64,000 nucleotides of DNA from NCBI GenBank assembly GCA_949299165.1, contig CASFZJ010000002.1:4924-68923 (forward strand). The letters run 5' to 3'. The stretch is from an uncultured bacterium (lineage in GTDB: Bacteria; Bacillota_I; Bacilli_A; RFN20; CAG-826). Shown here one piece after another: positions 2,125 through 59,326 of the stretch. Within the stretch, counting starts at the first letter, position 1. The number at the start of each line of letters is the position of its first letter. The notes below the pieces were generated by a model. It did no database searches and was not told the DNA's origin. It saw only the letters and a list, made by a program, of their open reading frames with translations. The position numbers and the translations under genes were made by a program.

Positions 2125-3787
2125 AGGCGTTTACCTCTTTTTTAAGACGTAACTTGATATCTTCTTTCTTAACTTGAAGTCCTACTTTATCGTTTAAGTT
2201 ATATGTATATGGAGAAACGAAGACAAAATCTTCTTCATTTTCAGTTCTCACGATGTAACGATAATGATCACCAACATAAATTGAGTCAACAATTTCACCA
2301 ACTACTTCACAATCTTCACTTTCAATATCGTCAATAACATCGATTTTATCGAGTGGGATTTCGGCAACTACATCAGCATCATTGAAGTTATATTTATGTT
2401 TGCCATCTTTTGAGACAACATTTCCTTCTTCATCTAAATGACCACCACTTACAAGTTGCTCAACATTACATGCAAATGGTCTATCATCAATCATAACTTC
2501 ATTATTTTTGTTAATCCAAGCATCGGTATAAACATTAGTTGCAAAATCTTTTTTCATGATGTGGATTCCATCTGGATCAATTGAAAGATAAGCAAGAGAA
2601 TTTACTTCGTAACTTGATGTGCTTTTTACCATTAATTCGTTTTTACCAATCATGATGGTGTATTGATAGTTCATACCTTTAAAGATTTTGTTAACGATTG
2701 TGCCTTTAATCATTGCTTTTTCTTCTTTGACAAAGTGAACGTCTTCTGGACGTACAACAACGTCAACTTTTTCATTTAATGGGTAATCATCGAGGCAAAC
2801 AAAGTTATAATCAAGGAATCTTACTTTCTTTGTTCCAATCATTGTTCCATTATAAATATTAGATTCACCAATAAAATCAGCGACAAAAGCATTTTTTGGT
2901 TCGTCATAAATCATTTTTGGTGTGCCAATTTGTTGAATAACACCATCTTTCATAACAACGATTGTGTCACTCATTGTTAAAGCTTCTTCTTGATCATGAG
3001 TAACATAAATGAATGTGATTCCAAGTTTTTGATGCATCTCTTTTAACTCAAGTTGCATATCTTTTCTCATTTTTAAATCGAGCGCACCTAAAGGCTCATC
3101 TAAAAGAAGAATTTCTGGCTCATTAACAATAGCACGAGCAATCGCAACTCTTTGTTGTTGTCCACCACTTAAAGTTGAAATATCTCTATCTTCTAGAGCT
3201 TCAAGATCAACAATTTTTAAAGCTTTAGCAACTTTTTGATCAATTTCTTTATTAGAAAGTTTTACATACGAATAACTTTGAGTTGGAGTTGTTTTAAGTT
3301 TGTTGATTTTTTCTTCTAAATCTTCAAGTTTAGCTTTTTTGACTTCTTCTTCAAGATGTCTATTTCTCTTTATTAAAGAATATTCTCTTTTAAGTTCTCT
3401 AATTTTTTTGTGGTCCACTTTTAAAACTGGATTACCATCTTTGTCTTTTTTAAGAACAGGAATACGTTTTAAACGTAAACCGAAAGCGATGTTATCATAA
3501 ACATCTAAATGAGGAAAAAGAGCATATCTTTGAAATACCATATTAATAGGTCTTTTATTAGGAGGTAAATTTGAAATATCTTTACCATTTAATAAAATTT
3601 CACCTTTTGATGGAAATTCAAATCCAGCAATCATTCTAAGCGTAGTGGATTTACCACATCCAGAAGGACCTAAAAAAGTAATAAATTCTCCCTTCCTTAC
3701 ATAAAGGTTAAAATTGTCTACAGCTATAGTATCATCATCGAAGATTTTACTAACATTTTTTAGATCAATAATATAGTTGTTTTTCAT
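2114..3787 (-). CDS. potA: Spermidine/putrescine ABC transporter ATP-binding protein PotA with an approximately 90-aa low-complexity insertion
   Basis: Walker A GPSGCGKST, signature LSGGQQQRVAIARA, Walker B LLLDEP, C-terminal TOBE-like domain. Probable true start is ATG at 3787, preceded by a GGGGG Shine-Dalgarno; the ORF track extends to 3871. Confidence 0.85.
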   Translation of the reverse strand: MKNNYIIDLKNVSKIFDDDTIAVDNFNLYVRKGEFITFLGPSGCGKSTTLRMIAGFEFPSKGEILLNGKDISNLPPNKRPINMVFQRYALFPHLDVYDNIAFGLRLKRIPVLKKDKDGNPVLKVDHKKIRELKREYSLIKRNRHLEEEVKKAKLEDLEEKINKLKTTPTQSYSYVKLSNKEIDQKVAKALKIVDLEALEDRDISTLSGGQQQRVAIARAIVNEPEILLLDEPLGALDLKMRKDMQLELKEMHQKLGITFIYVTHDQEEALTMSDTIVVMKDGVIQQIGTPKMIYDEPKNAFVADFIGESNIYNGTMIGTKKVRFLDYNFVCLDDYPLNEKVDVVVRPEDVHFVKEEKAMIKGTIVNKIFKGMNYQYTIMIGKNELMVKSTSSYEVNSLAYLSIDPDGIHIMKKDFATNVYTDAWINKNNEVMIDDRPFACNVEQLVSGGHLDEEGNVVSKDGKHKYNFNDADVVAEIPLDKIDVIDDIESEDCEVVGEIVDSIYVGDHYRYIVRTENEEDFVFVSPYTYNLNDKVGLQVKKEDIKLRLKKEVNAYEI

Positions 3788-4012: not shown

Positions 4013-5239
4013 CTAAATTTCGTCAATTTGTTTCCACGATTTTGTTAAAGTTTTCACGCGAGAAATTGCATCTTCTTTTTTGATATTATTTTTTAAATAT
4101 CCATCAATAATTCTAGCAATTTCAATGGCATCTTCTTTAATTGCGCCTCGCGTTGTAACAGCTGCAAATCCAATTCTTACTCCACTTGTTACACTTGGTT
4201 TTTCATCATCATTTGGAAGCATATTTTTATTAAGTGTAATTCCAATTTCTTCAAGTTTTTCTTGAGCATCTTTTCCAGTTACACCAAAACTCTTTTTTGT
4301 ATTTAAAAGGAATAAATGATTTTCTGTGCCACTATTTATATCACCAAGTCTAGTAAGTTCATCAGAGCAAGCTTTAGTATTAATTTTGACTTGTTTAATA
4401 TATTCTTTATATTCAGGTTGAAGAGCTTCGTAGAAACATTCAGCTTTTGCACCAATTATATTTTCTAGTGGCCCTCCTTGAAGTGCTGGGAAACAAGCTT
4501 TATTAACTTTCTTAATAATTTCTTCGTTATTTGTTAAAACAATTCCGCCTCTTGGTCCTCTTAAAGTTTTGTGGGTGGTTGAAGTAACAATATCAGCATA
4601 TTTTAACGGATTATCAAGTTCACCTGCTGCAATAAGACCTGCAATGTGAGCCATATCAACCATAAAATAGGCGCCAACTTCTTTAGCTACATCTTTTATC
4701 TTTTGATAATCTATTTCAAAAGGGTAGGCGCTAAATCCAGCAAGAATTAAATTCGGGCGATATTCAAGAGCTTTTTCTCTTAAAGCTTCATAATCAATTC
4801 TTCCATTTTTATTTAAGTGATAAAAATCAACATTATAGTAACGAGAAGAAAAACTGACTTTTGAACCATGAGATAAATGTCCACCTTCATCAAGAGATAA
4901 AGAAAGAATTTTGTCTCCAGTATTTAAAAGAGCATAATAGGCAATCATATTAGCTTGTGTGCCTGAATGAGGTTGAACACAAGCATATTTTGCGCCAAAT
5001 AATTTAGTTACAAGTTCAATTGCGCGATTTTCAATTTCATCAATATGAACGCATCCGCCATAATATCTTTTCCCAGGAAATCCTTCAGCATATTTATTAG
5101 TTAAAATCGAACCACAAAGAGCACGAACATTTTTACTAGCAAAATTTTCACTTGCAATTAGTTCAATTCCTCCATTTTGTCTTTTTGTTTCACTTTCTAA
5201 ATAAGAAAATAATAATTCATCTCTATTCAATATTATCAC
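4013..5239 (-). CDS. glyA: Serine hydroxymethyltransferase
   Basis: 408 aa with a PLP-lysine motif context (TTHKTLRGPRGG). Likely TTG start at about 5230, 6 nt after a GGAGGTGA Shine-Dalgarno. Confidence 0.9.
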   Translation of the reverse strand: MIILNRDELLFSYLESETKRQNGGIELIASENFASKNVRALCGSILTNKYAEGFPGKRYYGGCVHIDEIENRAIELVTKLFGAKYACVQPHSGTQANMIAYYALLNTGDKILSLSLDEGGHLSHGSKVSFSSRYYNVDFYHLNKNGRIDYEALREKALEYRPNLILAGFSAYPFEIDYQKIKDVAKEVGAYFMVDMAHIAGLIAAGELDNPLKYADIVTSTTHKTLRGPRGGIVLTNNEEIIKKVNKACFPALQGGPLENIIGAKAECFYEALQPEYKEYIKQVKINTKACSDELTRLGDINSGTENHLFLLNTKKSFGVTGKDAQEKLEEIGITLNKNMLPNDDEKPSVTSGVRIGFAAVTTRGAIKEDAIEIARIIDGYLKNNIKKEDAISRVKTLTKSWKQIDEI

Positions 5240-5242
5240 CTC

Positions 5243-6523
5243 CTAGAAAATATCTTCTTTAATAATTGTTTCATTATGATCTGGACCTACAGAAATTAAG
5301 CAAGCATGTGCATCAATTTCTTTTTCAATAAATTTAACATAATTTTGAGCATTTATTGGTAAATCCTCAAATTTTCTAACTTTAGAAATATCTTCTTTCC
5401 AACCAGGTAAAGTTACATAAACTGGTTTGCATCTATAAGTTTCTTTTAAACTTGCTGGAACATAATCAATAATTTTTCCATCAAGTTCATAGCTTGTACA
5501 AACTTTAATTTCATCAATTCCAGATAAAATATCTAAAAGCATTAAAGCAAAATAATCAAATCCATTAACATTACGAGAATAGCGAAGTTGATTTAAATCA
5601 AGGTAGCCAATTCTTCTTGGACGATGAGTAACAACGCCATATTCATGAGCTTTTTCACGAATATTATCAGCTAAATCGTTAAATAATTCAGTGACAAATG
5701 GACCTTCACCAACTCTTGTTGTATAAGCTTTTACAATTCCTACTACGCCTTCAATATAGCCAATTCCAATTCCACTTCCAGTGATTGCGCCTCCTGCTGA
5801 AGAATTAGAACTTGAAACATAAGGATAAGTTCCAAAATCAATGTCGAGCATTGTGCCTTGAGCACCTTCAAATAAGATTTTTTTACTAGCTTTTTTAGCT
5901 TTTGCAAGAATAGAAACCGTTTCTTTTACATAAGGTTTGAAAAATTCTGAAAGTTTTTCATACTCTTTCAATGATTTTTCAAGATCAATAGGTGTTCCAC
6001 CATATCGAGCGATTTCTTCATTTTTTTCTTTTAAATGTTCAGCATAAATTTTTGGAAAATCTTCATCGATAAAATCAGCAAAACGGATTCCATCACGTGA
6101 AATTTTATCAGTATAGCAAGGCCCAATACCTTTTTTAGTTGTGCCTATCTTTTTATCTTTTAAATGTGCTTCTTTTAAACCATCAAGTTCAAGATGATAA
6201 TTTAAATCAACATTTGCTCTTGAAGAAATTACCATGTTATTTAATTTAAAACCAGCATCAAGTAATGTTTTCATTTCAGAATAAAGGCTAATTGGATTAA
6301 TAACCATGCCATTCCCAAGTATATTTAAAGTTTTTTCATTAAAAATTCCACTTGGAATTGTTTGAAGATGGAATTCTTGACCATCAAATTTTACTGTGTG
6401 GCCGGCATTATTTCCGCCTTGATAACGAACAACAATATCAGCTTTTGCAGAATAGTAATTTGTTACTTTTCCTTTTCCTTCATCTCCCCATTGACTTCCA
6501 ACAACAACAATTGATCTCATCAT
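5243..6523 (-). CDS. purA: Adenylosuccinate synthetase
   Basis: N-terminal GSQWGDEGKGK P-loop, 426 aa. Confidence 0.9.
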   Translation of the reverse strand: MMRSIVVVGSQWGDEGKGKVTNYYSAKADIVVRYQGGNNAGHTVKFDGQEFHLQTIPSGIFNEKTLNILGNGMVINPISLYSEMKTLLDAGFKLNNMVISSRANVDLNYHLELDGLKEAHLKDKKIGTTKKGIGPCYTDKISRDGIRFADFIDEDFPKIYAEHLKEKNEEIARYGGTPIDLEKSLKEYEKLSEFFKPYVKETVSILAKAKKASKKILFEGAQGTMLDIDFGTYPYVSSSNSSAGGAITGSGIGIGYIEGVVGIVKAYTTRVGEGPFVTELFNDLADNIREKAHEYGVVTHRPRRIGYLDLNQLRYSRNVNGFDYFALMLLDILSGIDEIKVCTSYELDGKIIDYVPASLKETYRCKPVYVTLPGWKEDISKVRKFEDLPINAQNYVKFIEKEIDAHACLISVGPDHNETIIKEDIF

Positions 6524-45754: not shown

Positions 45755-46801
45755 TTAGAGAGTTTTAACAACCTTTTTCTCTTCTTTTTCCTTTTGTCTC
45801 TCTAATTCGGCTTTTTGGAAATTATATCCATCTAAGCAAGCATCTTTAATGTCGTAAAGACATTTAAAACCAAGTTCATTTTCTGCTTTTTCAGTTGCAG
45901 CGTAGTTAATTGGTACATCTCCTGCTCTACGAGGAGCAAATTTATAAGGAATTTTGACTCCTGTTGCTTCTTCATAAGCGTGGATAACTTCAAGAACGCT
46001 TGTCCCTTTTCCTGTGCCTAAGTTATAAATAACTAAACCAGGATTTGTTTCAAGTTTTCTCAAAGCTAATACGTGACCTCTTGCAAGATCTACAACGTGA
46101 ATATAATCTCTAACGCCAGTTCCATCAACTGTTTCATAATCATTACCATAGACACTTAATTCCTTTAAAACACCAACGGCGACTTTGTTGATATATGGTA
46201 ATAAATTATTTGGAATACCATTTGGATCTTCACCAAGTAAACCAGATTTATGTGCACCAATTGGGTTAAAGTATCTAAGTATAGCAATGTTCCGCTCTTT
46301 ATGGATGAAAGCCATATCTTTTAAGATTCTTTCAATCATGACTTTAGTTTCGCCATATGGAGAAGTTGCATCTTTTACAGGTGAATCTTCAGTTAATGGG
46401 ACTCTATCTGGTAAGCCATAAACTGTGGCGCTTGATGAAAAAACAAAATTTCTAACATCATATTTTTCCATCGCTCTAAATAAAGCAAAACAGATATCAA
46501 GATTATTTTGGTAATAATTTAAAGGTAATTTAACGCTTTCACCAACTGCTTTATATCCTGCAAAATTGATGATTGCATCAAAATGTTCATTTTTAAATAA
46601 TTCATCCATGTCACTAACACTTGTACAATCAAGTTTATAAAATTTAGGTCTTGTGCCTGTTATTTTTTCAATTCCATCGAGTGCGTCCATTTTTGAGTTA
46701 TAAAGATTATCAACAATCACTACTTCGTATCCATTTTCAAGTAAAGAGACGACAGTGTGAGAACCAATAAATCCAAGTCCGCCAGTAACTAAAACTTTCA
46801 T
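45755..46801 (-). CDS. galE: UDP-glucose 4-epimerase
   Basis: 348 aa, N-terminal GGLGFIGSH Rossmann motif, YxxxK catalytic pair; full-length GalE-like. Confidence 0.85.
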   Translation of the reverse strand: MKVLVTGGLGFIGSHTVVSLLENGYEVVIVDNLYNSKMDALDGIEKITGTRPKFYKLDCTSVSDMDELFKNEHFDAIINFAGYKAVGESVKLPLNYYQNNLDICFALFRAMEKYDVRNFVFSSSATVYGLPDRVPLTEDSPVKDATSPYGETKVMIERILKDMAFIHKERNIAILRYFNPIGAHKSGLLGEDPNGIPNNLLPYINKVAVGVLKELSVYGNDYETVDGTGVRDYIHVVDLARGHVLALRKLETNPGLVIYNLGTGKGTSVLEVIHAYEEATGVKIPYKFAPRRAGDVPINYAATEKAENELGFKCLYDIKDACLDGYNFQKAELERQKEKEEKKVVKTL

Positions 46802-46816
46802 AAATTCCTCCTTTAA

Positions 46817-47461
46817 CTATCTATTACTAAGTTTTTTTGCTTCCTTATCTAATATTTTCTTTTCAAGAAGTTTTTCCTTCTTGTCTTCTTTTAAGGCAGA
46901 AGAAGGTAAAACAGTTTCGCTAAGATAATTCATAATTGAATCAGCGATGATCTTTTTAGTTGAACTTTCAATATAAAGTCTTAAAGCTTTGTTTGCTAAT
47001 TTTTTTGAAAAGTCTTCTTCGCTAAGTGATTCATGAAGATTTTTAATCTCTTCTTTTAAAGGAGAGCTAGTTCTCATTACGGACTCTTCTTCAAGCTCTT
47101 TACAAAAAGTGTATAACTCTTCTTTATTTCCAGAATAAGCTTTATCAAAAGAAAATAAAGAAGCGATGTTTTTTAGTGAAGTTATGTTTTTAAGTAGACT
47201 AATAAATAAAATGTAGCCAATTTGTTCATTTGTATAATGTTTATCAATTGGTGAAGAAACAATTTTTGCCTTAACATAATTATTAATCATATAATTAGTG
47301 ACTAAATTGTTATCGTCATTATAAAAAGGAGCCAAAATTTCATTTAAATAGTTAATTGTTTCTTCCATTTTGATATTATTTGGAATTTCTAAATAATTTG
47401 GAAGTTTATATCCATTTAAAGTATCAAGATAATCGATTAAATCTTCAAGTTTTTGCTTCAT
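46817..47461 (-). CDS. Hypothetical protein
   Basis: 214-aa ORF directly upstream of galE; no motif recognised. Confidence 0.35.
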   Translation of the reverse strand: MKQKLEDLIDYLDTLNGYKLPNYLEIPNNIKMEETINYLNEILAPFYNDDNNLVTNYMINNYVKAKIVSSPIDKHYTNEQIGYILFISLLKNITSLKNIASLFSFDKAYSGNKEELYTFCKELEEESVMRTSSPLKEEIKNLHESLSEEDFSKKLANKALRLYIESSTKKIIADSIMNYLSETVLPSSALKEDKKEKLLEKKILDKEAKKLSNR

Positions 47462-47749
47462 CTTTTTATTCTACTACATTTGGGTAAAGAATATAAGGTA
47501 GCGAAATTAATCACGAGGTGCTTTTCTTGAAGACTATTCCGAGTAAGAAGTAGCAAATAATGAATTAAAGTCACTTATACTTTTGGTCTCTGAATTTCTT
47601 TGCTTTTTGAACAAATAATTAGAAAATAATTCGAGATTTGCATGGTTTTTGCTTTAAATTAAGCAATTATTGAAACGAAAATAGGAAAAATAAAATGAAA
47701 ATTTATCTTGAGCCAAACTGCTCTTAACAAGAATTCATTTTGTGAAAAA

Positions 47750-48226
47750 TTAATGTCCATAATATCTTTTAACAACTTCGATAAGTTCTTTATCTGTAAT
47801 TTTTTTCGTAATAGTTTTATTAGATTTTTTCAAAATCGAAAACATTTTAATATTGTTTTTTTCAAAAATTTCAAATTCTAAATAAAAATCACCAATTTTT
47901 TCATATTCTAATTGAATGCTATTTCTCGCCGTAGGAAAAATATCTGGCTGTGAATCTAATTTATCAATAATTGTTCTTGCATATTCAACTAATTCTTTTG
48001 AAAATCGTTTGGCTCCATATTGATTCCAATTATCACTTAAACTAGCAATCCTATTTAGCGTTTCATAACTTTGAATCTTACATAAATCAATATTTCTTGT
48101 ATCAAAATTTTGTTTTGGACTATTATCGGTGCCAACAGAATTAGGAATAATATCAATATTATTAAATGAATAAGAAAAGTTGCGATTATTTTTTGAATAA
48201 TCTGATGCTGATAGAATTAGATTCAT
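47750..48226 (-). CDS. Cassette gene B1 (unknown function; paralog of 54648-55130)
   Basis: 158 aa. Shares a conserved block with B2 (NWNQYGAKRFSKELVEYARTIIDKLDSQPDIFPTARNSIQLEYEK...LEFEIFEKN versus NRNGYGAHSFDKKTIQRFLSIINFLEIQPKISPTGRKTLVLAYEK...LSFEIFENK). Its start overlaps the A1 stop (ATGA). Confidence 0.5.
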   Translation of the reverse strand: MNLILSASDYSKNNRNFSYSFNNIDIIPNSVGTDNSPKQNFDTRNIDLCKIQSYETLNRIASLSDNWNQYGAKRFSKELVEYARTIIDKLDSQPDIFPTARNSIQLEYEKIGDFYLEFEIFEKNNIKMFSILKKSNKTITKKITDKELIEVVKRYYGH

Positions 48227-48645
48227 ATCCTTTTTCCTCCTTCAACTGTTATTAATCTTTCGCCAAGTAATTCATCATTAAGATAAATCTTGGTTGAATA
48301 TAAACCACTTTCTTTAAAAAGAATATTTTTAAACTCAAATCTTAAGTTTATGCTAGTTAAGTTTTTATCGTTAATTTCTTCTTTTTTAACTTTAGGAATA
48401 GTAATTTCGCCAGAATTAAATAAAATTTCTTTTGTCCCGAAATCTTGTTGAAAAACAAGTTTTATTTTGTTTTCTTTTTCATTATCAACACCTAAAAGCG
48501 AAAATACGACTGAAAAAGTAATGGCTCCAGGTAAACAATCTGATTTTAAAGCGCACAAAACATTCAATGCATTAATTGCATTAAGGTCACTAGATATTTG
48601 GCTATCTGCACAATAAACAAAGTTTGTTAAAGTTACCATAATCAC
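48223..48645 (-). CDS. Cassette gene A1 (unknown function; paralog of 54218-54664)
   Basis: 140 aa. Shares TLTNFVYCADSQ / TVTNFIFCENSK and NILFKESGLYSTKIYLNDELLGERLI / NILFKKEGECIAKIFFDDELIGEKHI blocks with A2. Confidence 0.5.
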   Translation of the reverse strand: MIMVTLTNFVYCADSQISSDLNAINALNVLCALKSDCLPGAITFSVVFSLLGVDNEKENKIKLVFQQDFGTKEILFNSGEITIPKVKKEEINDKNLTSINLRFEFKNILFKESGLYSTKIYLNDELLGERLITVEGGKRI

Positions 48646-48727
48646 CTCTTGTTTTTATTATAATTTAAAATTAGGTGAACGACTATTGGAGAAAGAGCTG
48701 TCGTTCGTGATCGTTTGTTCATATTCT

Positions 48728-48820
48728 CTAAAGAGCTTCTTGCTTCATAGATGCCACTATTTCAGGTATTTCATCTCCACAAGCTTGAATTCCGGGCATG
48801 ACTTCCGTACTGAATTTAAT
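48728..48820 (-). ncRNA. Orphan IS605 right-end / omega-RNA-like element without an adjacent tnpB
   Basis: About 70% identity over 93 nt to the element abutting the tnpB stop codon at 22476-22579. It includes the shared core AAGCTTGAATTCCGGG...GAC-TCCGTACT-AATTTAAT, has the same relative orientation, and lies directly upstream of cassette gene A1. The ORF-track ORF 48686-48901 overlapping it is probably non-coding. Confidence 0.45.
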
Positions 48821-49057
48821 AGCTGGTTATTTTTGTTATTTTGCTATGTGTATACATACACTTCTTCCGTTTTGTCTCATATAGCTATCATTAATGAGTA
48901 GAAGCAATATTTCGGTGTAGCAGACCTACTTTCCTTAAAATTTAAACTTTAAGTTAAGTCATTTGAAAATACCTCCTCACTTATTACAAAGGAGATTAAA
49001 ATCAAAAACGTTAAAAATATTTTTCAAAAATTAAATTTTCTTCAAATTTCTATGAAA

Positions 49058-49225
49058 TGAAAAACCTAACTTTTTGCAAATTTCTTTATTTTATAAACAT
49101 AGAATTTTGCAAATTTTGCTATTTTGAAAACCTAGAATTTTGCAAATTTTGGTGTTTTAGAAACATAGAATTTTGTAAATTTTCATATTTTTAGAAACTA
49201 AGTTTTTACAAATTTCGAGATTATA
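49058..49225. repeat. Approximately 34-bp tandem repeat array (about 5 units) with a palindromic TTTGCAAA core in each unit (iteron-like)
   Basis: Units such as AAACATAGAATTTTGCAAATTTTGCTATTTTG repeated head-to-tail with progressive degeneration; non-coding, AT-rich. Confidence 0.6.
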
Positions 49226-49652
49226 AATATCATTTTTATGTAAACACTTATTAAATTTATTTTTTTTGCGGATAAGATTAATTAATCACAATTTTTTTAA
49301 ACTTTCTTTCGTTGTATAAAGTAAATCAAACTTTTTAATAAAATATGATCTAGTATAAACGAATTTAAGAATTCAGTAGCAAAAATATAAAGAAATTTTC
49401 TAAAAGAGTTTATCAGTTAATATATGCTTCTTCGTGTGTCAAGAATACAACTAATTTAATTAATATTTTTTTATTTCTAGACTCAGCGTATTGAAGCTTC
49501 AAAAAATATTATTCAAAAAAATAGGAATTTTTTAAAATTAGCGACAAAATTTGAAAAATAATAAAATATGGTATTTCTGCGATGTTTTTTAACTTAAATA
49601 TTAGTTTTTTTATTAATTTTCAAAAAAATTAAATCTTAAATTTCCGGCACTT

Positions 49653-49720
49653 TGTCGCTTTCGTGTCGCTTTCGTGTCGTTTTCGTGTCGTTTTCGTGTC
49701 GCTTTCGTGTCGTTTTCGTT
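49653..49720. repeat. 11-bp tandem repeat array TCGTGTCG(C/T)TT, about 6 units, abutting a promoter -10 element
   Basis: TGTCGCTT then five full units TCGTGTCGCTT/TCGTGTCGTTT, then TCGTT, immediately followed by TGATATAAT. Confidence 0.75.
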
Positions 49721-49728
49721 GATATAAT
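49720..49728 (+). promoter_or_regulatory. Extended -10 promoter element (TGATATAAT) for the downstream Schlafen-like gene
   Basis: TGnTATAAT 33 nt upstream of ATG 49761, the same 9-mer as upstream of tRNA-Thr. Confidence 0.4.
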
Positions 49729-49751
49729 TTCTTTTTTATGCTAAATTAACT

Positions 49752-51080
49752 TTGTGTTTTATGGATTTATTTGAGTCAAACAGAATAGAATTTAAAGCAA
49801 AAATTACTGATCAACTTGTACGTGAGATAGTCGCGTTTTTGAACACTGATGGCGGAAAAATATATATAGGTATTAGCGATGATGGCAAAGTTATTGGTAC
49901 AAAAAATATTGATGAATCGCTTAGAATCATATCTGATATTGTTTGCTCTCAAATTGAACCATCTCCAATAGAATTAGTAAAAAGTGATATTCATTTTTTA
50001 GAGAACCAACCAGTTATTGTGGTTAATGTTGATAAAGGGACTGAATCAATTTATTGTATTAAAAAATATGGTTTTTCAAGTGTAGGCTGCCCAATAAGAG
50101 TTGGATCTACTTGCCGAGAAATGAGTCAAGAGCAAGTTCAATACAGATATAAAATGCGCTATTCTGATGATGATTTGTTAGTTTCATCACCGACAAACTT
50201 ACCTGAACTTTCGTTTGTTACTTTAAAAAATTATTATTCAAATATTGGCCTTAAATTAAATGACGAAAATTTCAAAAACAACCTCAATCTCCTGAACAAA
50301 AAAGGCCAATATAATAAATTAGCAGAATTAGTTTCGGATAATAGTCGCTATTCATTTATCTTTGTTAAGTTTGAAGGAGCAAATAAGGCTTCACTTTCAC
50401 AAAGAAGCAACTATGGAAACAAATCTATATTATTTGCTTATGAACAAATGAAAAATCGAATTGAAGCTGAAAACATCTGCATCTCTGATACAACCACAAG
50501 ACCAAGAATCGATAAATTTCTATATAACATCGAATCTGTTGATGAAGCCATTATCAATGCAATAGTCCACAATGATTGGAGTGTTGGAGAACCACAAGTT
50601 GCTTTTTTTAACAATAGAATTGAGATTATCTCTCATGGTGGTTTACCACATAATTTAACTAAGGAAGAATACTTTGCTGGAATTACAAAACCTAGAAATG
50701 CCGCTTTAATGAAAATATTTTCTGATTTAGATATCGCAGATAATACTGGACATGGCATTCCAACTATTATTGAACATTATGGTAAAGATGTTTTTGATAT
50801 TGAACCAAATCACATTATAATAAGCATTCCGTTTGATAAAGATATACTAGAAAGATTCAAAAGAGAGCATACCGATATAATCAATTTTGATTTGAATGAA
50901 CCAGAAAAGTTGATATTAGAACAACTTTCACTTGACCCAACAACTACTGCACAAAAAATCGCATTAAAACTCAAAAAAAGTCGAAGAACTATCGAGCGTT
51001 ATTTAAAATCCTTACAAGCAAAAGATTATATTGAACGAGTTGGAACCATACGAAATGGTTATTGGAAAATAATAAAGTAA
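49752..51080 (+). CDS. AlbA_2 (Schlafen-like) domain protein with C-terminal histidine-kinase-like ATPase and wHTH (paralog of 26727-28142)
   Basis: N-terminal AFLNTDGGKIYIGISDDGKVIGT AlbA_2 core; C-terminal block paralogous to the first copy. Likely ATG start at 49761. Confidence 0.65.
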   Translation: MCFMDLFESNRIEFKAKITDQLVREIVAFLNTDGGKIYIGISDDGKVIGTKNIDESLRIISDIVCSQIEPSPIELVKSDIHFLENQPVIVVNVDKGTESIYCIKKYGFSSVGCPIRVGSTCREMSQEQVQYRYKMRYSDDDLLVSSPTNLPELSFVTLKNYYSNIGLKLNDENFKNNLNLLNKKGQYNKLAELVSDNSRYSFIFVKFEGANKASLSQRSNYGNKSILFAYEQMKNRIEAENICISDTTTRPRIDKFLYNIESVDEAIINAIVHNDWSVGEPQVAFFNNRIEIISHGGLPHNLTKEEYFAGITKPRNAALMKIFSDLDIADNTGHGIPTIIEHYGKDVFDIEPNHIIISIPFDKDILERFKREHTDIINFDLNEPEKLILEQLSLDPTTTAQKIALKLKKSRRTIERYLKSLQAKDYIERVGTIRNGYWKIIK

Positions 51081-51643
51081 CTAATTATTTAAAAACAAAT
51101 ATCTCTAATATTTAAAACCAATCCAAAATAAATATTAAGTGCCGGCACTTGTTCTTTTTACTTGTTCGCATTAGATTGGTCAAATTCTTCGACATTCTGA
51201 CGCTTCTATATTTTATTTCAGAAATTAGATCAGAGAATAAACAATAAATTCATTCAAAATGTAGCAAGCTATTTTTAAAACAAAATTAATTTGAACAGTT
51301 TAACCGTTTTATATTGCTTTTATCTTTTTGCGATTATAGTCTTTTTTTAACTTCAATTACTTCATCAATTGAAAATAAAATAAATAACTTCGTGCGAAGT
51401 TCGTGCGAACTAATCGTTCTCTTACCTCTTTTGTCATTATCATTTGAAAAATGATATAAAATCACTTGAATATTGAATAATAATAAGCAACAATACGCGA
51501 AAAAAATTGAGTTTTGCAGGGTTTTTACTTTAAATGTAACTAAAAACTTTTACGTCAATATATAAAATTACTTTAATAAAACTTTTCCTTTCTAGTTAAA
51601 ATACTAAGTGCCGGCACAACTTCTCCATCATTTTTCACATCAA

Positions 51644-52933
51644 CTATTTAGACTGGTCATCGTTATTCTTTTCTTCGCCAATCAATCTTACAAGGTCACT
51701 CCTTTTAAGTATTTTATTTTTAACTACTTCATCTGCGATTATACTTAGTACCTTTTTATATTTTCTAAGTCTTCTTTTTACAATGTGATAGGTTTTCATC
51801 ATGAATTTATTTACTCTTTTTGCGTAAGTCTTTTTCTCATATTCACTTATTGACTCACCACGATATCTTAAAGATTTAGGTGCGTGGAAATCGATTGCGT
51901 TTATGTTTACTCCGTTCAGTAAATTAAATGAAGAAGTGTAGGCTTTTTCTAAATCATTAGAACATCCTATATCGTGTTTTTTATAGAAAAGTTCTTCAGC
52001 GACTAATCCTGCAAGTGCTATTTGAATGTCTTCAATCTGATTTTCTCGATTATCCTCAAAAAGATCAGTTGAATAGGTATATCCTCTTTGCTCATAACAT
52101 CTAATTCTAAAAAACTTTTTGCTTCTAGAAAATTTATAAATATATAAGGCGTGTCCTGCTTCATGAAGTGCGATGACTCTAGGCACAACATAGTCTTCTT
52201 TACTTTCAACACATCCCGTATCTAAAAAAGTTAATTCATTAATAAAATCATCAAGTTCTGCCTCTTTACCCTTTTTAAAATAAACCATATTAAAAAGTGT
52301 TTTGATTTTGCTAATTGATGAGCCAGATAAATGTTGTCTTAATTCTTCAATTTCGTCGTCCACTCTTTCAATATTAAAACCTCTATCTTTTAATAAATGC
52401 TTGATGATCTCTTTTAATTCTTTATTATTAAAAACTTTAATTTCATATTTTCGATCAAAACGACCTTCTCTTACTAAAGAATCTGGTAAGTCGTAATAAA
52501 AATTGGCACTAGCGAGTGTTAAAACATTCCCTTCTTTTTTAAATCCATCAAGTTCAGTTTGTAAAACTCTTTCAAGTTTTGTATCGCGCTCTACAAGACG
52601 ATCTACCTCATCAATTATTATAATTGCGCCTTTTTCTTCTTTTTTAGCTTCTTTATAAGTCGAAACTAAAACTTCATCTAAATTTTCTTTATCTCCTTCG
52701 ATAACAAAAATTTTATAGTCAAAAGTTTTAGCGAATTCTCTCATGAGCAAAGTTTTCCCTTGCCCTGGATCGCCATAAAACAAAATTCCATGAGGTAAAA
52801 ATTCTCTTTTATCTTCTTCTAATTCATTATTTAAATACCATCCTAAAATCTCATATAACTCATCTTTAACGCCTTGATATCCATAAACTTTTGATAAAAA
52901 CTCATTTCTTGAATTCATAATTTTTAGCCTCAC
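51644..52933 (-). CDS. Soluble FtsH-like AAA+ ATPase with C-terminal M41-type zinc metalloprotease domain (no transmembrane region)
   Basis: Walker A GDPGQGKT, Walker B IIIIDEVD. HEAGHAL zinc motif and downstream GCSNDLEKAY matching the FtsH peptidase region (HEAGHA... / GASNDIERAT). 429 aa, lacking the FtsH N-terminal TM and periplasmic part. Confidence 0.65.
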   Translation of the reverse strand: MRLKIMNSRNEFLSKVYGYQGVKDELYEILGWYLNNELEEDKREFLPHGILFYGDPGQGKTLLMREFAKTFDYKIFVIEGDKENLDEVLVSTYKEAKKEEKGAIIIIDEVDRLVERDTKLERVLQTELDGFKKEGNVLTLASANFYYDLPDSLVREGRFDRKYEIKVFNNKELKEIIKHLLKDRGFNIERVDDEIEELRQHLSGSSISKIKTLFNMVYFKKGKEAELDDFINELTFLDTGCVESKEDYVVPRVIALHEAGHALYIYKFSRSKKFFRIRCYEQRGYTYSTDLFEDNRENQIEDIQIALAGLVAEELFYKKHDIGCSNDLEKAYTSSFNLLNGVNINAIDFHAPKSLRYRGESISEYEKKTYAKRVNKFMMKTYHIVKRRLRKYKKVLSIIADEVVKNKILKRSDLVRLIGEEKNNDDQSK

Positions 52934-53015
52934 TTTCTAAGTGAGTTCATTATAAAAAGAAAAATGTCCTAAAAAAGGGACATCAAATAATAAATTGATA
53001 AAGATAGCGCCAACA

Positions 53016-54020
53016 CTAACCTTTTAAATAATCTAACAAGATATTTTTAATTTTATCTTTTAAGAAAGATGGAGAAATTACTTTTACTACTTGAAGATAT
53101 TGTAAACACCAAAATAAAATTGCATTTTCATTACCTTTAATATAGGCAAAAATTTCATCATTTTCATTTACGATATAAGAGTTTTCATTAAACCAATCTT
53201 TAACAAATAAAACTGCGTGTTCGTTTTTGAGTTTAATTTTAGCTTCAATTATTTCTCCACCATAAAAATAAATATGGTTATTAATATATTCAGTGATTTC
53301 AAAATCTTTATATTTAGAATCTAGATCTTTTAATGCAGTGTAATATTTATCGCTTTCAATTATTTCAACATCCTTTAAATAATCAATTCGAAAAGTGTTA
53401 AGCGTTTTATAATCAGCTCGATAATTACATAAAAGATAGTATCGTCCTGAATTATTTACGAGGAAATAAGGCGAAACTTTATAAATAAATCCATTCAAGC
53501 GATAAACTTCTTTTCCATATTTATCATAATCAATTACTTTAAAAGCTACTCGCTTTTTGTTTTTAATCGCTTCAAGAAGAAGCGAAATAGTATACATTAT
53601 TTCATTATTTTTAGTTCTAGCAACTTCGCTAGTTTTATAGAGATATGAAGAGTTAAAATTAAAAAGTTCTTTTTCTTTATTTTGTGAAAATGTCGAAGAT
53701 ATCTTTTTAATTAAATTTTTAGCTTCTTTAGCGTTAATACTCCTACTAGAAAATATTGAATCAATTAAATAATTCGCTTCTGTTTCATCAAAAAGACGAG
53801 AAAATAAAGCAACTCCACCTTTTTCTTTCCTAACTAAGTCATAACCTAATTCTTCAAGTAAATTTAAAGAATAAGCGATAGATTTTCTTTCTAACTCAAC
53901 GCCATATAATTCATATATCTTATTAATAATATCTTGTTGAGTTAAAAAATGTTCTTCATCACTATATTTTTCTAAAACTTTAAGAACTAATAATATTGAT
54001 GCTTTTTTGTTTTCGATCAT
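53016..54020 (-). CDS. HTH-WYL-domain transcriptional regulator (BrxR/CapW-like)
   Basis: N-terminal wHTH region, central WYL-like block RYYLLCNYRADYKTLNTFRIDYLKDVEII, about 330 aa as in BrxR-type regulators. Confidence 0.6.
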   Translation of the reverse strand: MIENKKASILLVLKVLEKYSDEEHFLTQQDIINKIYELYGVELERKSIAYSLNLLEELGYDLVRKEKGGVALFSRLFDETEANYLIDSIFSSRSINAKEAKNLIKKISSTFSQNKEKELFNFNSSYLYKTSEVARTKNNEIMYTISLLLEAIKNKKRVAFKVIDYDKYGKEVYRLNGFIYKVSPYFLVNNSGRYYLLCNYRADYKTLNTFRIDYLKDVEIIESDKYYTALKDLDSKYKDFEITEYINNHIYFYGGEIIEAKIKLKNEHAVLFVKDWFNENSYIVNENDEIFAYIKGNENAILFWCLQYLQVVKVISPSFLKDKIKNILLDYLKG

Positions 54021-54217
54021 AAGTTTTCTCTTGATTATATTATAGAGGAATTATCGTTAAGAAAGAGTTAAAATGTTCATTAATCTAATTAAATTGTGTT
54101 TTTATATATAAAATTCTGAAAAATATTAAGGTTTTGCAAGGATTTTCAATAATATAGACAATATATACGGAAAAATAATTAAAGTCCTGTCACTTCACCT
54201 TTTGCCTTCACTAAGCA

Positions 54218-54664
54218 TTGAAAATATGGCCAAAAACAAATAAAATAATTACTAAGGAGACAAAGAAGATTATGGCAACTGTTACAAACTTTATTTTTTG
54301 TGAAAATTCTAAAATCGACGAAAACGGAAATACTTCTGTCGTTAATATTTTAAACTATTTTTCTTTATCAATATTGCCAACTCAATTTACTTTTGATCTC
54401 TATTTTACAGTAGCTAAATTTGAAACAGGCGATCACAAGATAAAATTTATTATGCTTGATAGTGACAATAATATCCTCGCAGAAACTCCTGACATAAATG
54501 TTAAATTATTAAAAACATCCGACACAATTGATGATGTAAATTTTGTTAATTTCACTTTAAATCTTCGAAATATTCTTTTTAAAAAAGAAGGTGAATGCAT
54601 CGCAAAAATATTTTTTGACGATGAACTAATAGGAGAAAAACATATTTATGCGAACAAGAAATGA
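54218..54664 (+). CDS. Cassette gene A2 (unknown function; paralog of 48223-48645)
   Basis: 148 aa; see A1. Overlaps the B2 start by 17 nt. Confidence 0.5.
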   Translation: MKIWPKTNKIITKETKKIMATVTNFIFCENSKIDENGNTSVVNILNYFSLSILPTQFTFDLYFTVAKFETGDHKIKFIMLDSDNNILAETPDINVKLLKTSDTIDDVNFVNFTLNLRNILFKKEGECIAKIFFDDELIGEKHIYANKK

Positions 54665-55130
54665 AATCTTAGCATTTACTCCTCTTTACACTTTAAGTGC
54701 TACTAGTACGACAAAAAATATTAAAAAAAGTAAGCCAAACTACAATTTTAATCAAGCAAAATTTAATGACTCAACTTTAAATTTAAACCGCTTTATTAAT
54801 ATCAAGGCAATTGAGTCGCTCGAAAGCTTAAAAGAAAATCGGAATGGTTATGGGGCGCACTCCTTTGATAAAAAGACTATTCAAAGATTTTTATCTATTA
54901 TTAATTTTTTAGAAATACAACCAAAAATTTCCCCTACCGGAAGAAAAACTTTAGTTTTGGCTTATGAAAAAGATAAAGATGAAAAACTATCATTTGAAAT
55001 TTTTGAAAACAAGATTGATTGCGCCTATTTAAATATGAAAGATTTTTCAAAATCTTATATCAAACAAGTTAACGAAAGTGATCTTAATCAAGAAATAAAT
55101 AAATTTTATGGAAAAAGTTTATCTATATAG
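54648..55130 (+). CDS. Cassette gene B2 (unknown function; paralog of 47750-48226)
   Basis: 160 aa; see B1. Overlaps the next gene by 23 nt. Confidence 0.5.
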   Translation: MRTRNEILAFTPLYTLSATSTTKNIKKSKPNYNFNQAKFNDSTLNLNRFINIKAIESLESLKENRNGYGAHSFDKKTIQRFLSIINFLEIQPKISPTGRKTLVLAYEKDKDEKLSFEIFENKIDCAYLNMKDFSKSYIKQVNESDLNQEINKFYGKSLSI

Positions 55131-55482
55131 ATCTATTAGTAAAGGTGGAATGGATTATTTTTTAAGCAACTCCAGTTGGGTTGGAGCTTTTTTAGATGAT
55201 AGCAAAGATGGTTGCTCTGTCGAATATCAAGGAAAACGAACTGATTTAGATATTTCTAAAGAATTCAGTATCAGATTCGGAAAAAATAAGGGATTCTATG
55301 GTGTTGCAAAATTGATCGAAAGTCAAATCACGTCTGCTACCAATTTTAATCTTGGTGTAAAAAGCGCACCTAGTAAGAATAATTCAAACCACGCATTAAT
55401 TTACGACTTGAACATTGGTCAAATTAACGTTTTACAAGCAAGTTTTCTTGCAACTATCTGCGAAGTTTATGGATTGATTTAA
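55108..55482 (+). CDS. Hypothetical protein C2 translationally coupled to cassette A2-B2 (no counterpart in the first cassette copy)
   Basis: 124-aa ORF overlapping B2; no motif recognised. Confidence 0.35.
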   Translation: MEKVYLYRSISKGGMDYFLSNSSWVGAFLDDSKDGCSVEYQGKRTDLDISKEFSIRFGKNKGFYGVAKLIESQITSATNFNLGVKSAPSKNNSNHALIYDLNIGQINVLQASFLATICEVYGLI

Positions 55483-55633
55483 ACAAAAAATAAGTCTTAT
55501 ATCATGAGACAAGAGAGATTCAATCTAAAAATCTAAATTACATAATTGATAATCAAAATTCTTAGATATAAAAACGATTTCATAAATTTAATGCAAGTTT
55601 TGCATACTTTTCATTTGAACAAATATTTTTATT

Positions 55634-56160
55634 ATGTTTTTCAATATCCTTTGCTTGAGTGTTAATAATTCGTCTTCATTATCTTTTAGAGGCAATCTTA
55701 TGGCAGAATTTAAATGTGTAAATACAACATCTCCTAACATTAAAGAAAACATTGAAATTAATTCTCCAGATAAGTATATCGAATCATTTGACAACGCTTC
55801 AATAAAAGGCATCACCGTAACGAAAAAAGAATTATCTACATTTCAAGAAAAGTCAAAAACACCATTCTAACTTTTAAAGATAGTGTCCTAAACGAAAATC
55901 AATTTTGTCTAGCTAATTACATCAACGAACTCAGTCAACAAAATGAATGGCCAAGATTTCTTAAGAGTGCGTATTTCACTCTTACTGAATTTGAATTAAC
56001 ATAATTACTTTCCGCAATATTTTTATCGGATATTAATGTATTTACTAAGGAAATTAAAAATCTTTTAGTTGAACGCACAACAAGATATCTAAATACCGAA
56101 CTTTCTGATATTGCTAAAGGATACTTACATCTTTATGCAAGCGAATATAAAAATTAAAAG
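55634..56160 (+). pseudogene. Probable decayed gene remnants (frame-shifted fragments with in-frame stops)
   Basis: Short ORFs in different frames (55634-55870 and 55909-56158, the latter with an internal TAA). The 650-bp region has no intact gene, at the boundary between the accessory island and the polysaccharide locus. Confidence 0.25.
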
Positions 56161-56841: not shown

Positions 56842-57393
56842 TTAAAATTTAAAACTAATTTCTATAAATTTTAAATGCTTCTTATCTTTCTCCGAAAGTA
56901 TGTACTCAGAGTCAATCTCTGGCCACTCAACTCCAATATCAGGATCGTTATACATAATTCCACCTTCATCATTTGGATGATAAAAATCATCACATTTATA
57001 AGCAAATGTCGCAGTCTCAGATAAAACTAAGAATCCATGAGCAAAGCCTCTAGGGATCATAAACATCTTCTTGTTTTCTGCACTTAATCTAACACCAAAC
57101 CATTTCCCATAAGTTTCTGAATCTTTTCTTAAATCAACCGCAACATCAAAAACTTCTCCTTCTAATACTCTAACAAGTTTTGCTTGAGGATATTGTTTTT
57201 GAAAATGAAGTCCTCTTAATACTCCTTTTGTTGAATAAGATTGATTGTCTTGAACAAAGTCATAATCAAGACCTAACTCATGAAAAGCATTTTTGTTATA
57301 AGATTCATAGAAATAACCTCTAGAATCTTCAAATACTTTTGGTTCAATAATTACTAAATCTTTGATAGGTGTAAGTGTTAGTTTCATCTTCAA
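56842..57393 (-). CDS. rfbC: dTDP-4-dehydrorhamnose 3,5-epimerase
   Basis: 183 aa, cupin-fold RmlC sequence (GVLRGLHFQ..., FHPNDEGG). Confidence 0.9.
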   Translation of the reverse strand: MKMKLTLTPIKDLVIIEPKVFEDSRGYFYESYNKNAFHELGLDYDFVQDNQSYSTKGVLRGLHFQKQYPQAKLVRVLEGEVFDVAVDLRKDSETYGKWFGVRLSAENKKMFMIPRGFAHGFLVLSETATFAYKCDDFYHPNDEGGIMYNDPDIGVEWPEIDSEYILSEKDKKHLKFIEISFKF

Positions 57394-57398
57394 TACCT

Positions 57399-58283
57399 CT
57401 AATAAATAATCTTACCTTTAGCAACATTTAAAAGGTGTTGGCCGTATTCGTTCTTTGCCATTGATTCACCAATCTCAATAAGTTTTTCTTTTGATATCCA
57501 TCCATGAATATAAGCAATTTCTTCAGGACAAGAAATTTTGATTCCTTGATGTTCTTCTAAAATCTTGATGTAGCTCGATGCATCAATAAGTGATTCATGT
57601 GTTCCTGTATCAAGCCAGGAATAACCTCTACCTAAAGTTGTAACATGAAGCTTCTTTTCTTTTAGATATACATTGTTAAGAGTTGTGATTTCGAGCTCTC
57701 CTCTTGCAGATGGTTTAATAGTTTTGGCGATAGCACTGACTCCTTTTGGATAGAAATATAAACCAGTAACACAATAATTTGATTTAGGTTTTGCAGGTTT
57801 TTCTTCTATACTAATGGCATTTCTATTTTCATCAAGTTCAACAATACCAAATCTTTCTGGATCCTTGACGTAGTATCCATAAATTGTAGCAATACCTTCT
57901 TCTGCTCTTCTAACACTATTTTCTAAATGCTTTGTTAAACCTGCTCCATAGAAAATATTGTCTCCAAGTATCATGGCACAAGGCTCATCTCCAATGAAAT
58001 CTTCCCCAATTATGAAAGCTTGAGCAAGTCCATCAGGAGATGGTTGAACAGCATATGAGAGCTTAATACCAAATTTTGATCCATCACCAAGTAGTTCTTT
58101 AAATCTTGGTGTATCAGTTGGTGTAGATATAATAAGAATATCCTTAATTCCTCCAAGCATGAGAGTCGATAAAGGATAATAAATCATTGGTTTATCATAA
58201 ATTGGAAGTAATTGTTTACTTGTAACTAAAGTAAGTGGATATAGTCTAGTACCACTTCCACCAGCTAAAATAATACCTTTCAT
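57399..58283 (-). CDS. rfbA: Glucose-1-phosphate thymidylyltransferase
   Basis: N-terminal [18 protein letters not shown] signature, 294 aa. Confidence 0.9.
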
Positions 58284-58306
58284 ATCAAAATCCTCGCAAA
58301 ACTAAA

Positions 58307-59326
58307 TTATTTCTTAGAATATCTTTCCATCCATTTAAGATATTCACCACTTTCAACGTGGTTTAACCATTCTTCATTTTCAAGATTCCATTTGATTGTT
58401 TCTTTAATTCCTGTGTCAAAATTGAATTCTGGTTTCCAACCAAGTTCAGTTTCAATCTTGTGTGGATCAATTGCATATCTTAAATCGTGTCCTGGTCTAT
58501 CTTTGACGTAGTTAATTAAACTTTCAGGTTTTCCTAAAGCATTTAAGATTGTTTTTACTACTTGAAGGTTTGTTCTTTCGTTGTGTCCACCAATATTATA
58601 TACTTCGCCATCTCTTCCGTTTCTTACAACAAGGTCGATTGCTGTACAGTGGTCCCCAACATATAGCCAATCTCTAACATTAGCACCATTTCCATAAACT
58701 GGTAATGATTCATCATTTTTTGCTTTTTGAATCATAAGCGGAATGAGCTTTTCTGGGAATTGATAAGGTCCATAATTATTTGAACATCTTGAAATGGTCA
58801 CTGGAAGTTTAAATGTTCTATTGTAAGCAAGAACAAGTAAATCAGCGCTTGCTTTTGATGCTGAATATGGAGATGAAGTATGTAATGGTGTAGTTTCTGT
58901 AAAGAAAAGATCTGGTCGATCTAAAGGAAGATCGCCATACACTTCATCTGTTGAAACTTGATGGAATCTTTTAATCCCATATTTTCTACATGCATCCATG
59001 AGAACTGAAGTACCAATGATATTTGTCTCTAAGAAAATTTCTGGATTTTCAATACTTCTATCAACGTGACTTTCAGCAGCAAAGTTGATAACGTAATCAA
59101 AATGCTCTTTTTCAAAAAGCTCATAGACTGCTTTTCTGTTACAAATATTTTCGTGAACAAATTTAAAGTTTGTTTTTTTCATGATTGGAACTAATGTTTC
59201 CATATTTCCAGCATATGTTAATGCATCAATACAAACATATTCATCATTTGGATATTTGTTTACCATGATATGGAGGAAATTTCCACCAATGAAACCTGCT
59301 CCACCTGTAACTAAGAATTTTGCCAT
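58307..59326 (-). CDS. rfbB: dTDP-glucose 4,6-dehydratase
   Basis: 339 aa, TGGAGFIG Rossmann motif, YSASK catalytic motif, RmlB-like throughout. Confidence 0.9.
   Translation of the reverse strand: MAKFLVTGGAGFIGGNFLHIMVNKYPNDEYVCIDALTYAGNMETLVPIMKKTNFKFVHENICNRKAVYELFEKEHFDYVINFAAESHVDRSIENPEIFLETNIIGTSVLMDACRKYGIKRFHQVSTDEVYGDLPLDRPDLFFTETTPLHTSSPYSASKASADLLVLAYNRTFKLPVTISRCSNNYGPYQFPEKLIPLMIQKAKNDESLPVYGNGANVRDWLYVGDHCTAIDLVVRNGRDGEVYNIGGHNERTNLQVVKTILNALGKPESLINYVKDRPGHDLRYAIDPHKIETELGWKPEFNFDTGIKETIKWNLENEEWLNHVESGEYLKWMERYSKK

Follow-up and report, generated by a model that had tools for sequence, protein, structure and literature searches.

What are the two cassettes of small, overlapping genes that enclose a block of defence-type genes in an uncultured bacterium of the Bacilli_A (GTDB CAG-826, contig CASFZJ010000002.1)? 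We addressed this question in a stretch of 64,000 nucleotides (nt) of this contig, hereafter the window, where an initial annotation had described two diverged copies of an unrecognised gene pair, A-B, the second of them with an extra gene, C2, and had proposed that they belong to an undescribed conflict system. Our results change the definition of the cassette: the obligate pair is B-C and not A-B, the gene upstream of B is swappable, and what had been taken as an extra gene is a core component whose counterpart in copy 1 has been lost by deletion, as sequence comparison shows. The genes of the two cassettes are the following.

47659-47760, minus strand: C1 remnant, an open reading frame of 33 codons that overlaps the B1 stop codon by 11 nt
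47750-48226, minus strand: B1, 158 amino acids (aa), putative antitoxin or immunity component
48223-48639 (to 48645 in the longer open reading frame), minus strand: A1, about 138 aa, DUF6941 (phrog_5881), putative accessory component, with an ATGA overlap with B1
54272-54664, plus strand: A2, 130 aa, DUF6941, preceded by an AAGGAG ribosome-binding site
54648-55130, plus strand: B2, 160 aa, B family with a divergent core, with a 17-nt overlap with A2
55108-55482, plus strand: C2, 124 aa, C family, putative toxin or enzyme, with a 23-nt overlap with B2

The open reading frames are present as annotated and the two copies are indeed paralogous, with BLASTP alignments of A1 to A2 over 132 aa (E=6e-17) and of B1 to B2 over the C-terminal 117 aa (E=4e-18); the identity is 32% in both cases, slightly lower than the 35-45% first estimated. 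All gene junctions overlap, by 4 nt (ATGA) at A1/B1, where GGAGG precedes the ATGA, by 17 nt at A2/B2 and by 23 nt at B2/C2, which confirms the earlier description; the genes, which run in the order A, B, C, are thus coupled in translation. The likely start of A2 is the ATG at 54272, behind the AAGGAG, and not the TTG at 54218; gene callers likewise give a protein of 130 aa on sister contigs. We found no further copy of the cassette within the window and no repeat at the DNA level between the two cassettes.

The composition of the core was established in two scans. The first was anchored on the core of B, used one genome per species and provided 39 loci, 38 of which were scored for neighbours, in Lachnospiraceae, Erysipelotrichaceae, Bacillaceae, Cytophagales, Sphingobacteriales, Synergistaceae, Caldisericota and Calditrichota. 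The second was anchored on C in metagenome contigs and provided 134 relatives, of which 80 were kept. The overlapping open reading frame downstream of B belongs to one connected C family in 31 of the 38 genome loci; this family takes in C2, the C protein of a phage cassette, the C protein of copy 1 in a related strain (C1') and a Bacteroidota protein, and its hosts in the first scan are Firmicutes, Bacteroidota, Synergistota, Caldisericota and Calditrichota. B lies directly upstream of C in all 73 C-anchored loci with enough upstream sequence, one of which is a B-C fusion open reading frame, while the gene upstream of B varies, and for this reason we regard B-C as the constant core of the cassette. 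C is always accompanied by B and B is tolerated without C (in 7 of the 38 genome loci and 4 of 15 viral loci), which is the asymmetry that an antitoxin-toxin pair predicts. The loss of the presumed toxin with retention of the presumed antitoxin is seen in copy 1 here and also in locus L005. Contig L129 shows two further arrangements: a single open reading frame that matches both the B and the C profiles (2443-3324; a B-C fusion or a frameshift artefact) and, 1-2 kb downstream on the same strand, a second B-C pair (4481-5430), so that tandem cassettes occur elsewhere too.

How copy 1 came to be without C can be read from the related strain. There (loci L017 and L019), a complete C1' gene of 128 aa (L017 419-805) comes after copy 1, and the first 15 residues of the C1 remnant, MDINFSQNEFLLRAV, match the start of this gene and then diverge until the stop codon; after B1 the window reads M-DINFSQNEFLLRAV, where 14 of the first 15 residues are as in C1'. 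The homology to L017 detected by blastn ends at window position 47717, the place where the remnant diverges. Because a C1'-like start breaks off precisely there, the alignments indicate that copy 1 lost its C gene by deletion and kept the first 15 codons. Given this remnant and the intact C1' of the sister strain, C cannot be regarded as an addition peculiar to copy 2. C1' aligns with C2 on the shared motifs, and it has 30% identity (E=2e-16) to the protein encoded after B in a Bacteroidota-like contig that is unrelated.

The first gene of the cassette can come from any of at least five families with no relationship to one another. Upstream of B, the genome loci carry DUF3467-like genes (11), a family of 210 aa (7), DUF6941 (6), a family of 222 aa and singletons, and the C-anchored loci carry DUF3467-like genes (26), DUF6941 (6), other genes (11, among them TIGR04255-family proteins, E=9e-25) or none (8), with 14 loci cut by the contig end upstream of B. 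No hidden homology was found by hhalign among the profiles A, B, C, D, E, T and F, the DUF3467-like profile had no significant match among PDB sequences, and a literature search on DUF6941, DUF3467 and TIGR04255 gave nothing relevant. In the window, A1 and A2 are DUF6941 proteins (PF22091), with 34 bits over model positions 17-124 of 125 and 46.9 bits over positions 3-123, both above the gathering threshold of 27 bits, and both match phrog_5881 (E 1e-11 to 1e-12). The cassette is therefore not unrecognised as far as A is concerned; the description holds for B and C in that neither has a Pfam family, although both have relatives in the candidate system PDC-M32. A profile of nine A sequences gave weak matches only in the PDB, all of them to immunoglobulin (Ig) V-set domains (E 0.01-0.65) in alignments centred on an L-x-I-x-N-V...G-x-Y motif, and A probably has an Ig-like beta-sandwich fold, which we consider a reasonable guess. 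A general homology between the N-terminal tail of B and A was considered and rejected; what we found is a single A-B fusion by deletion (P0024), in a decayed cassette (L005 6001-6616) where the first 42 residues of a DUF6941 protein (E=1e-8 to the A profile) are fused in frame to the core of B and a 47-aa stub stands in the place expected for C.

The B family is large: an exhaustive profile search retrieved 4028 cluster representatives at E<=1e-3, of which 2015 remain with the stricter cut-off of E<=1e-10. Its alignment shows a core of about 100 residues (L..NWNGYGA..FS..LI...QP.IFPTARNSIQLEYEK.NG.YLEFEIFE) behind a variable tail. In B1, a disordered N-terminal tail of about 45 aa is followed by a conserved core with NWNxYGA and FPTARNSIQLEYEK...YLEFEIFE; the core of B2 is divergent (NRNGYGA, SPTGRKTLVLAYEK). 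The closest relative of B1 in a named genome is in an uncultured Erysipelotrichaceae metagenome-assembled genome. B has no family in Pfam or NCBIfam, and its profile gave nothing significant against PDB sequences. The AlphaFold2 model of B1, with a predicted local distance difference test (pLDDT) score above 90 for residues 45-158 and disorder in residues 1-32, consists of two helices, a five-stranded antiparallel sheet and a C-terminal helix. This small alpha+beta fold would be immunity-protein-like, as the model is closest to the immunity protein TriTu. It speaks against the HEPN idea raised by a candidate Rx5H motif in B2, since HEPN domains are all-alpha and no R..H motif stands among the conserved columns of the family; more generally, HEPN, MNT and PIN were rejected for both A and B, which gave no match to these families.

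C has no match in Pfam, PHROGs, NCBIfam or PDB profile searches, and a word-indexed search with C2 returned a single detectable relative, P0055, with 47% identity. Among 108 distinct sequences, the C family conserves E-x-L-x-R (R 94%), S-A (94% and 91%), F-K-D (K 97%), G-x-S-V-D-R (G and S 97%, R 90%), a further R (91%), an N (82%) and an H (95%). Because the basic residues cluster with conserved Ser and His, the family suggests an enzyme acting on a phosphate-bearing substrate such as a nucleotide, NAD+ or a nucleic acid. A minimal ADP-ribosyltransferase-like fold is an attractive guess, by analogy with the toxin TreTu described below. C2 retains R8, G35, S37, R44, N92 and H95, and it sits on a divergent branch of the C family, together with the phage copy.

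The initial annotation had considered that the pair diversified in place. Yet copy 2 has 44% (A), 44% (B) and 47% (C) identity to the phage cassette and only 31-32% in A and B to copy 1, and of the remaining B-family members aligned, about two-thirds resemble B1 more closely than B2 does. These comparisons indicate independent acquisition of the two copies, as opposed to duplication in place. C1' groups with Bacteroidota-type C proteins.

A Pfam census of 145 nearest neighbours counted 148 families, among which DNA methylases (4), phage integrases (4) and epimerases (3) were followed by holin, GH25 lysozyme, Rep_1, ResIII, EF-Tu, MutS and others, found twice each. Such heterogeneity points to a module that is autonomous and settles in prophages, in mobile elements and in variable regions of the chromosome.

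The suggestion that this is a conflict module has gained ground: B has an immunity-like predicted fold, B and C resemble PDC-M32, the distribution across phyla is patchy and the cassette is found on phage contigs, all of which bears on function by inference. In the reading that we prefer, and to which we give about an even chance, the cassettes are autonomous modules of the toxin-antitoxin or abortive-infection type. C would be an enzyme that, when free, harms the cell or the replication of an infecting phage. B would bind and occlude C, perhaps as a beta-sheet lid in the manner of TriTu. The upstream protein, A in this case, would be an interchangeable sensor, adaptor or chaperone, possibly acting on the disordered tail of B. 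A1-B1 would be an orphan antitoxin, the remnant left after the loss of C, and A2-B2-C2, which is intact, may be under the control of a divergently encoded WYL regulator. Finally, the cassettes lie at both ends of a mosaic island of defence-type cargo, which they may help to stabilise and in which they may serve as addiction or abortive-infection modules.

A number of observations weigh against this reading. First, four residues that more than 84% of the C family conserve are replaced in C2 and its phage relative (E to V, S to G, K to L/D and R to Y), and all four are present in C1', the canonical type that was deleted in the window; the intact copy here may therefore be catalytically altered. 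Second, C could be given neither a fold nor a known catalytic motif: AlphaFold2 gave a pLDDT of 33 from a two-sequence alignment (C2 and P0055) and Pfam and PDB profile searches were empty. Third, the similarity of B to TriTu is modest (Foldseek E=0.1) and involves a simple fold common to many proteins, and B has no recognisable DNA-binding domain of the helix-turn-helix (HTH), ribbon-helix-helix (RHH) or AbrB types usual in type II antitoxins. Fourth, the link between the tail of B and the upstream gene is weak: the median tail is 42 aa without an upstream partner versus 67-91 aa with one, figures that depend on start-codon calls. Fifth, the two closest genes on either side of the cassette show no obvious excess of defence genes, and B2 and C2 themselves have no match in PADLOC.

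A bolder proposal, which we put forward tentatively, is that B-C is the core of a large group of undescribed, modular, three-component conflict systems, with C as a toxin of new fold or chemistry, B as its immunity-like lid and an interchangeable upstream sensor or adaptor (the Ig-like DUF6941, DUF3467-like, TIGR04255 or one of at least two more families) as the gate, possibly by way of the disordered N-terminal tail of B. If this were true, the choice of sensor would adjust one and the same effector pair to one phage cue or another.

It is rather unlikely that the cassette is instead a phage-derived offensive or regulatory module, acting in anti-defence, superinfection exclusion or host takeover, in which C would modify a target in the host or in a rival phage and would not be toxic to its own cell, and B would be a regulatory or targeting subunit. 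The idea draws on the A(131)-B(173)-C(133) triplet that includes P0055, which lies between the packaging and replication modules of phage-like contigs with terminase, DUF1064, DNA methylase and PAPS-reductase genes, on the 15 IMG/VR viral loci that carry the cassette, on the match of A to phrog_5881 and on the accessory small-gene array that forms the context of the cassette in L010. Relatives of the B fold are also present among viral proteins, and the structural neighbours of the B model include an anti-CRISPR and PsiB. However, most copies of the cassette are chromosomal and stand beside ordinary genes; among deposited phage genomes, tblastn detected a relative of B once (in an uncultured phage) and of C not at all, and among deposited plasmids it detected neither. 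Besides, the strict linkage of C to B and the B-only remnants fit neutralisation better than a simple two-subunit effector.

The toxin-antitoxin reading leaves the enclosed genes as cargo, and the question is whether they could be more than that. The block between the cassettes holds the following features.

49028-49729: non-coding, two tandem arrays that precede the SLFN gene
49752-51080, plus strand: Schlafen/AlbA_2, HATPase_c_4 and winged-HTH protein, cargo gene outside the cassette (Pfam)
51644-52933, minus strand: soluble FtsH-like AAA+/M41 zinc protease, cargo gene (Pfam, match to FtsH)
53016-54020, minus strand: WYL-domain regulator, divergent from A2-B2-C2 (Pfam; PADLOC WYL, E=1e-20)

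Pfam thus confirms the three gene assignments made initially: SLFN_AlbA_2 with HATPase_c_4 and a winged HTH in the first, AAA with Peptidase_M41 in the second, which has Walker A and HEAGH zinc motifs, and WYL in the third. The match of the protease begins at FtsH position 161 of 598, and therefore the membrane-anchored N-terminal part is absent. The two cassettes point outward around these genes, as described, and this outward-facing pair is kept in two lineages with different cargo, which argues that the arrangement is not a chance juxtaposition. Identity to L017 is only 76% in A1-B1; between window 51702-55682 and L017 6596-10575 it rises from 85-92% in the FtsH-like gene to about 96% in the WYL gene and 99-100% in A2-B2-C2. 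This pattern points to recombination or to a recent exchange of copy 2. The homology stops at window positions 47717 and 55682, beyond which the window has galE/DUF1836 and rmlCAB, and L017 has RmuC and a gene of 1060 aa. L017 also has, between the SLFN and FtsH-like genes (4433-6350), an ABC-type ATPase (SMC_N/AAA_23/AAA_21, 382 aa) and a 258-aa partner; this is a typical two-gene defence-like insert, absent from the window. Since identity varies along the block and both flanks and cargo differ in L017, the comparison describes a mosaic, relocating island in which the outward cassettes are retained and the cargo varies. The G+C content is 25-27% across the block vs about 30% in the flanks. 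We found no inverted repeats between the cassettes or at the ends of the island beyond AT-rich chance matches, and no integrase or transposase domain among the genes of the block (Pfam).

A functional tie of the cassette to the WYL, FtsH-like and SLFN genes had been suspected, and was not supported: a phmmer search of 146 other loci (843 kb) found a single SLFN-like neighbour and no WYL or FtsH-like relative beside the cassette. We consider it improbable, for this reason, that the whole block is one integrated defence system in which the protease or the WYL regulator controls the cassette proteins, e.g. by degrading the tail of B upon infection. Such a system would account for the same outward arrangement around the same core genes in two lineages and for the 251 nt (54021-54271) that separate the divergent WYL gene and A2 and would be their shared control region, and the predicted disordered tail of B could act as a degron; but the cassette stands alone in phage contigs, the cargo differs between lineages by the extra genes of L017, and the divergence along the block, with 76% to 100% identity, implies separate histories. 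The best reading is that the cassettes bracket the cargo with no mechanistic tie to it.

Least of all do we believe that B-C is an ordinary two-subunit enzyme or regulator outside conflict, e.g. in surface polysaccharide metabolism, as the position of the cassettes between galE/DUF1836 and rmlCAB, the sugar-nucleotide or glycosyltransferase neighbours in L005 and L028 and the three epimerases of the Pfam census could suggest, because the cassette is patchy across distant phyla and also present in phage-like and IMG/VR contigs, its neighbours are heterogeneous, its decayed copies are frequent, the same island is next to RmuC and not to rml genes in the related strain, and polysaccharide loci are hot spots for horizontal insertion.

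The cassette does lie repeatedly beside sugar-nucleotide or surface-polysaccharide genes, namely galE and rmlCAB here (45755-47461 and 56842-59326), GT2, GtrA and Polysacc_synt in L005 and a galE-like gene in L028. This neighbourhood may merely reflect insertion into hypervariable polysaccharide loci.

Several features of the non-coding stretches deserve mention. The intergenic region between A1 and the SLFN gene contains an array of 5 x 33 bp (49028-49225) and another of about 7 x 11 bp (TGTCG[C/T]TTTCG, 49642-49729), which ends just upstream of the start of the SLFN-ATPase gene; both arrays may be operator or iteron sites. A non-coding segment of higher G+C content between A1 and these repeats (48724-49053) is 88% identical to L017 45-373, which is on the opposite side of cassette 1 and so implies a local rearrangement; it had no Rfam match and no folding signal on either strand, and Rfam and folding tests were negative for the non-coding stretches of the block. 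Finally, the convergent SLFN and FtsH-like genes are separated by a non-coding gap of about 560 nt, with GTGCCGGCAC palindromes near both of its ends (51139-51150 and 51608-51617).

What this locus provides is, in the first place, a working definition (an obligate B-C pair behind an interchangeable first gene) of two associated families with thousands of members, which span gut Firmicutes, Bacteroidota and phages and both of which lack a Pfam model and a literature. It also links DUF6941, the DUF3467-like family and TIGR04255 to one genomic role, puts a three-gene relative of PDC-M32 in hand and offers a natural pair of variants: a divergent cassette that is intact, and a cassette that is without its presumed toxin here and intact in a sister strain. 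New candidates for toxin-antitoxin-like defence are common. If C turned out to have a new toxin chemistry, or the A-type proteins to be phage sensors, the cassette would be an addition to the catalogue of immunity derived from toxin-antitoxin systems.

How does the cassette compare with known systems? With the toxin-antitoxin-chaperone (TAC) systems it shares three small, co-transcribed genes and a presumed antitoxin with a disordered extension on which a third protein might act. It differs from them because A is not SecB-like (no match in Pfam or NCBIfam), the extension is N-terminal instead of C-terminal, the gene order is another, and the third gene is interchangeable. The WYL-regulated defence operons of the BrxR/CapW type also have a WYL gene directly upstream of, and divergent from, the genes that follow, as is the case of A2-B2-C2, but the association of WYL with the cassette is seen only in this lineage.

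TreTu-TriTu is a pair from Salmonella formed by an Rhs ADP-ribosyltransferase toxin and a lid-type immunity protein (PDB 7zhm, PMC9825190). TreTu has about 13 kDa, an Arg on strand 1, a Ser-Ser loop some 19 residues further on and a C-terminal helix. C is similar in size and has an Arg on its N-terminal strand followed, about 18 residues on, by a conserved Ser-Ser/Ser-Ala loop, a resemblance of motifs that we only infer. C has no sequence similarity to TreTu, whose catalytic H31 and W68 are without demonstrated counterparts in C; moreover, C is a free-standing open reading frame of 124 aa, where TreTu forms the C-terminal domain of a secreted Rhs carrier, and B is upstream of C, not downstream. 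The cassette is thus neither a TAC system nor a polymorphic toxin-immunity pair.

Type II toxin-antitoxin systems are alike in three respects: 1) small, adjacent, co-oriented and overlapping genes with the presumed antitoxin first (as at B2/C2, by 23 nt, and at B1 and the C1 remnant, by 11 nt); 2) the strict linkage of toxin to antitoxin, with orphan antitoxins and decay by loss of the toxin; and 3) mobility, patchy distribution and presence in prophages. They are unlike the cassette in that B has none of the DNA-binding domains mentioned above, C matches no known toxin family in profile searches, and a third, interchangeable gene usually stands upstream.

PDC-M32 is one of 145 phage defence candidates that were defined by their location inside BREX, DISARM or type I restriction-modification loci, and its cassette, FAM_01821>>FAM_00608, is listed with 98 as its count (Payne et al., bioRxiv 10.1101/2024.01.29.577857). 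A search with PADLOC, as had been recommended, connected our cassette to it through B1 and not through B2 or C2. The core of B resembles the C-terminal ~100 positions of PDC-M32A (B1, model positions 263-363, E=4e-7; a Bacteroidota B, 6e-5), 12 of 29 C-family proteins match PDC-M32B (best E 3.7e-6), and the gene order is shared, with the B-domain protein first and the C-like protein second. PDC-M32A differs by its size of 375 aa, with an extra N-terminal region of about 260 aa that none of the upstream partners tested matched, and the cassette differs by its separate third gene (DUF6941). Full membership in PDC-M32 fails, as B spans only the C-terminal quarter of PDC-M32A, and the profile matches make B and C distant relatives of the proteins of this candidate system, at the level of families only. 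Taken together, these comparisons suggest that the cassette is most like a type II toxin-antitoxin system with an added variable component, and that its nearest catalogued relative is PDC-M32.

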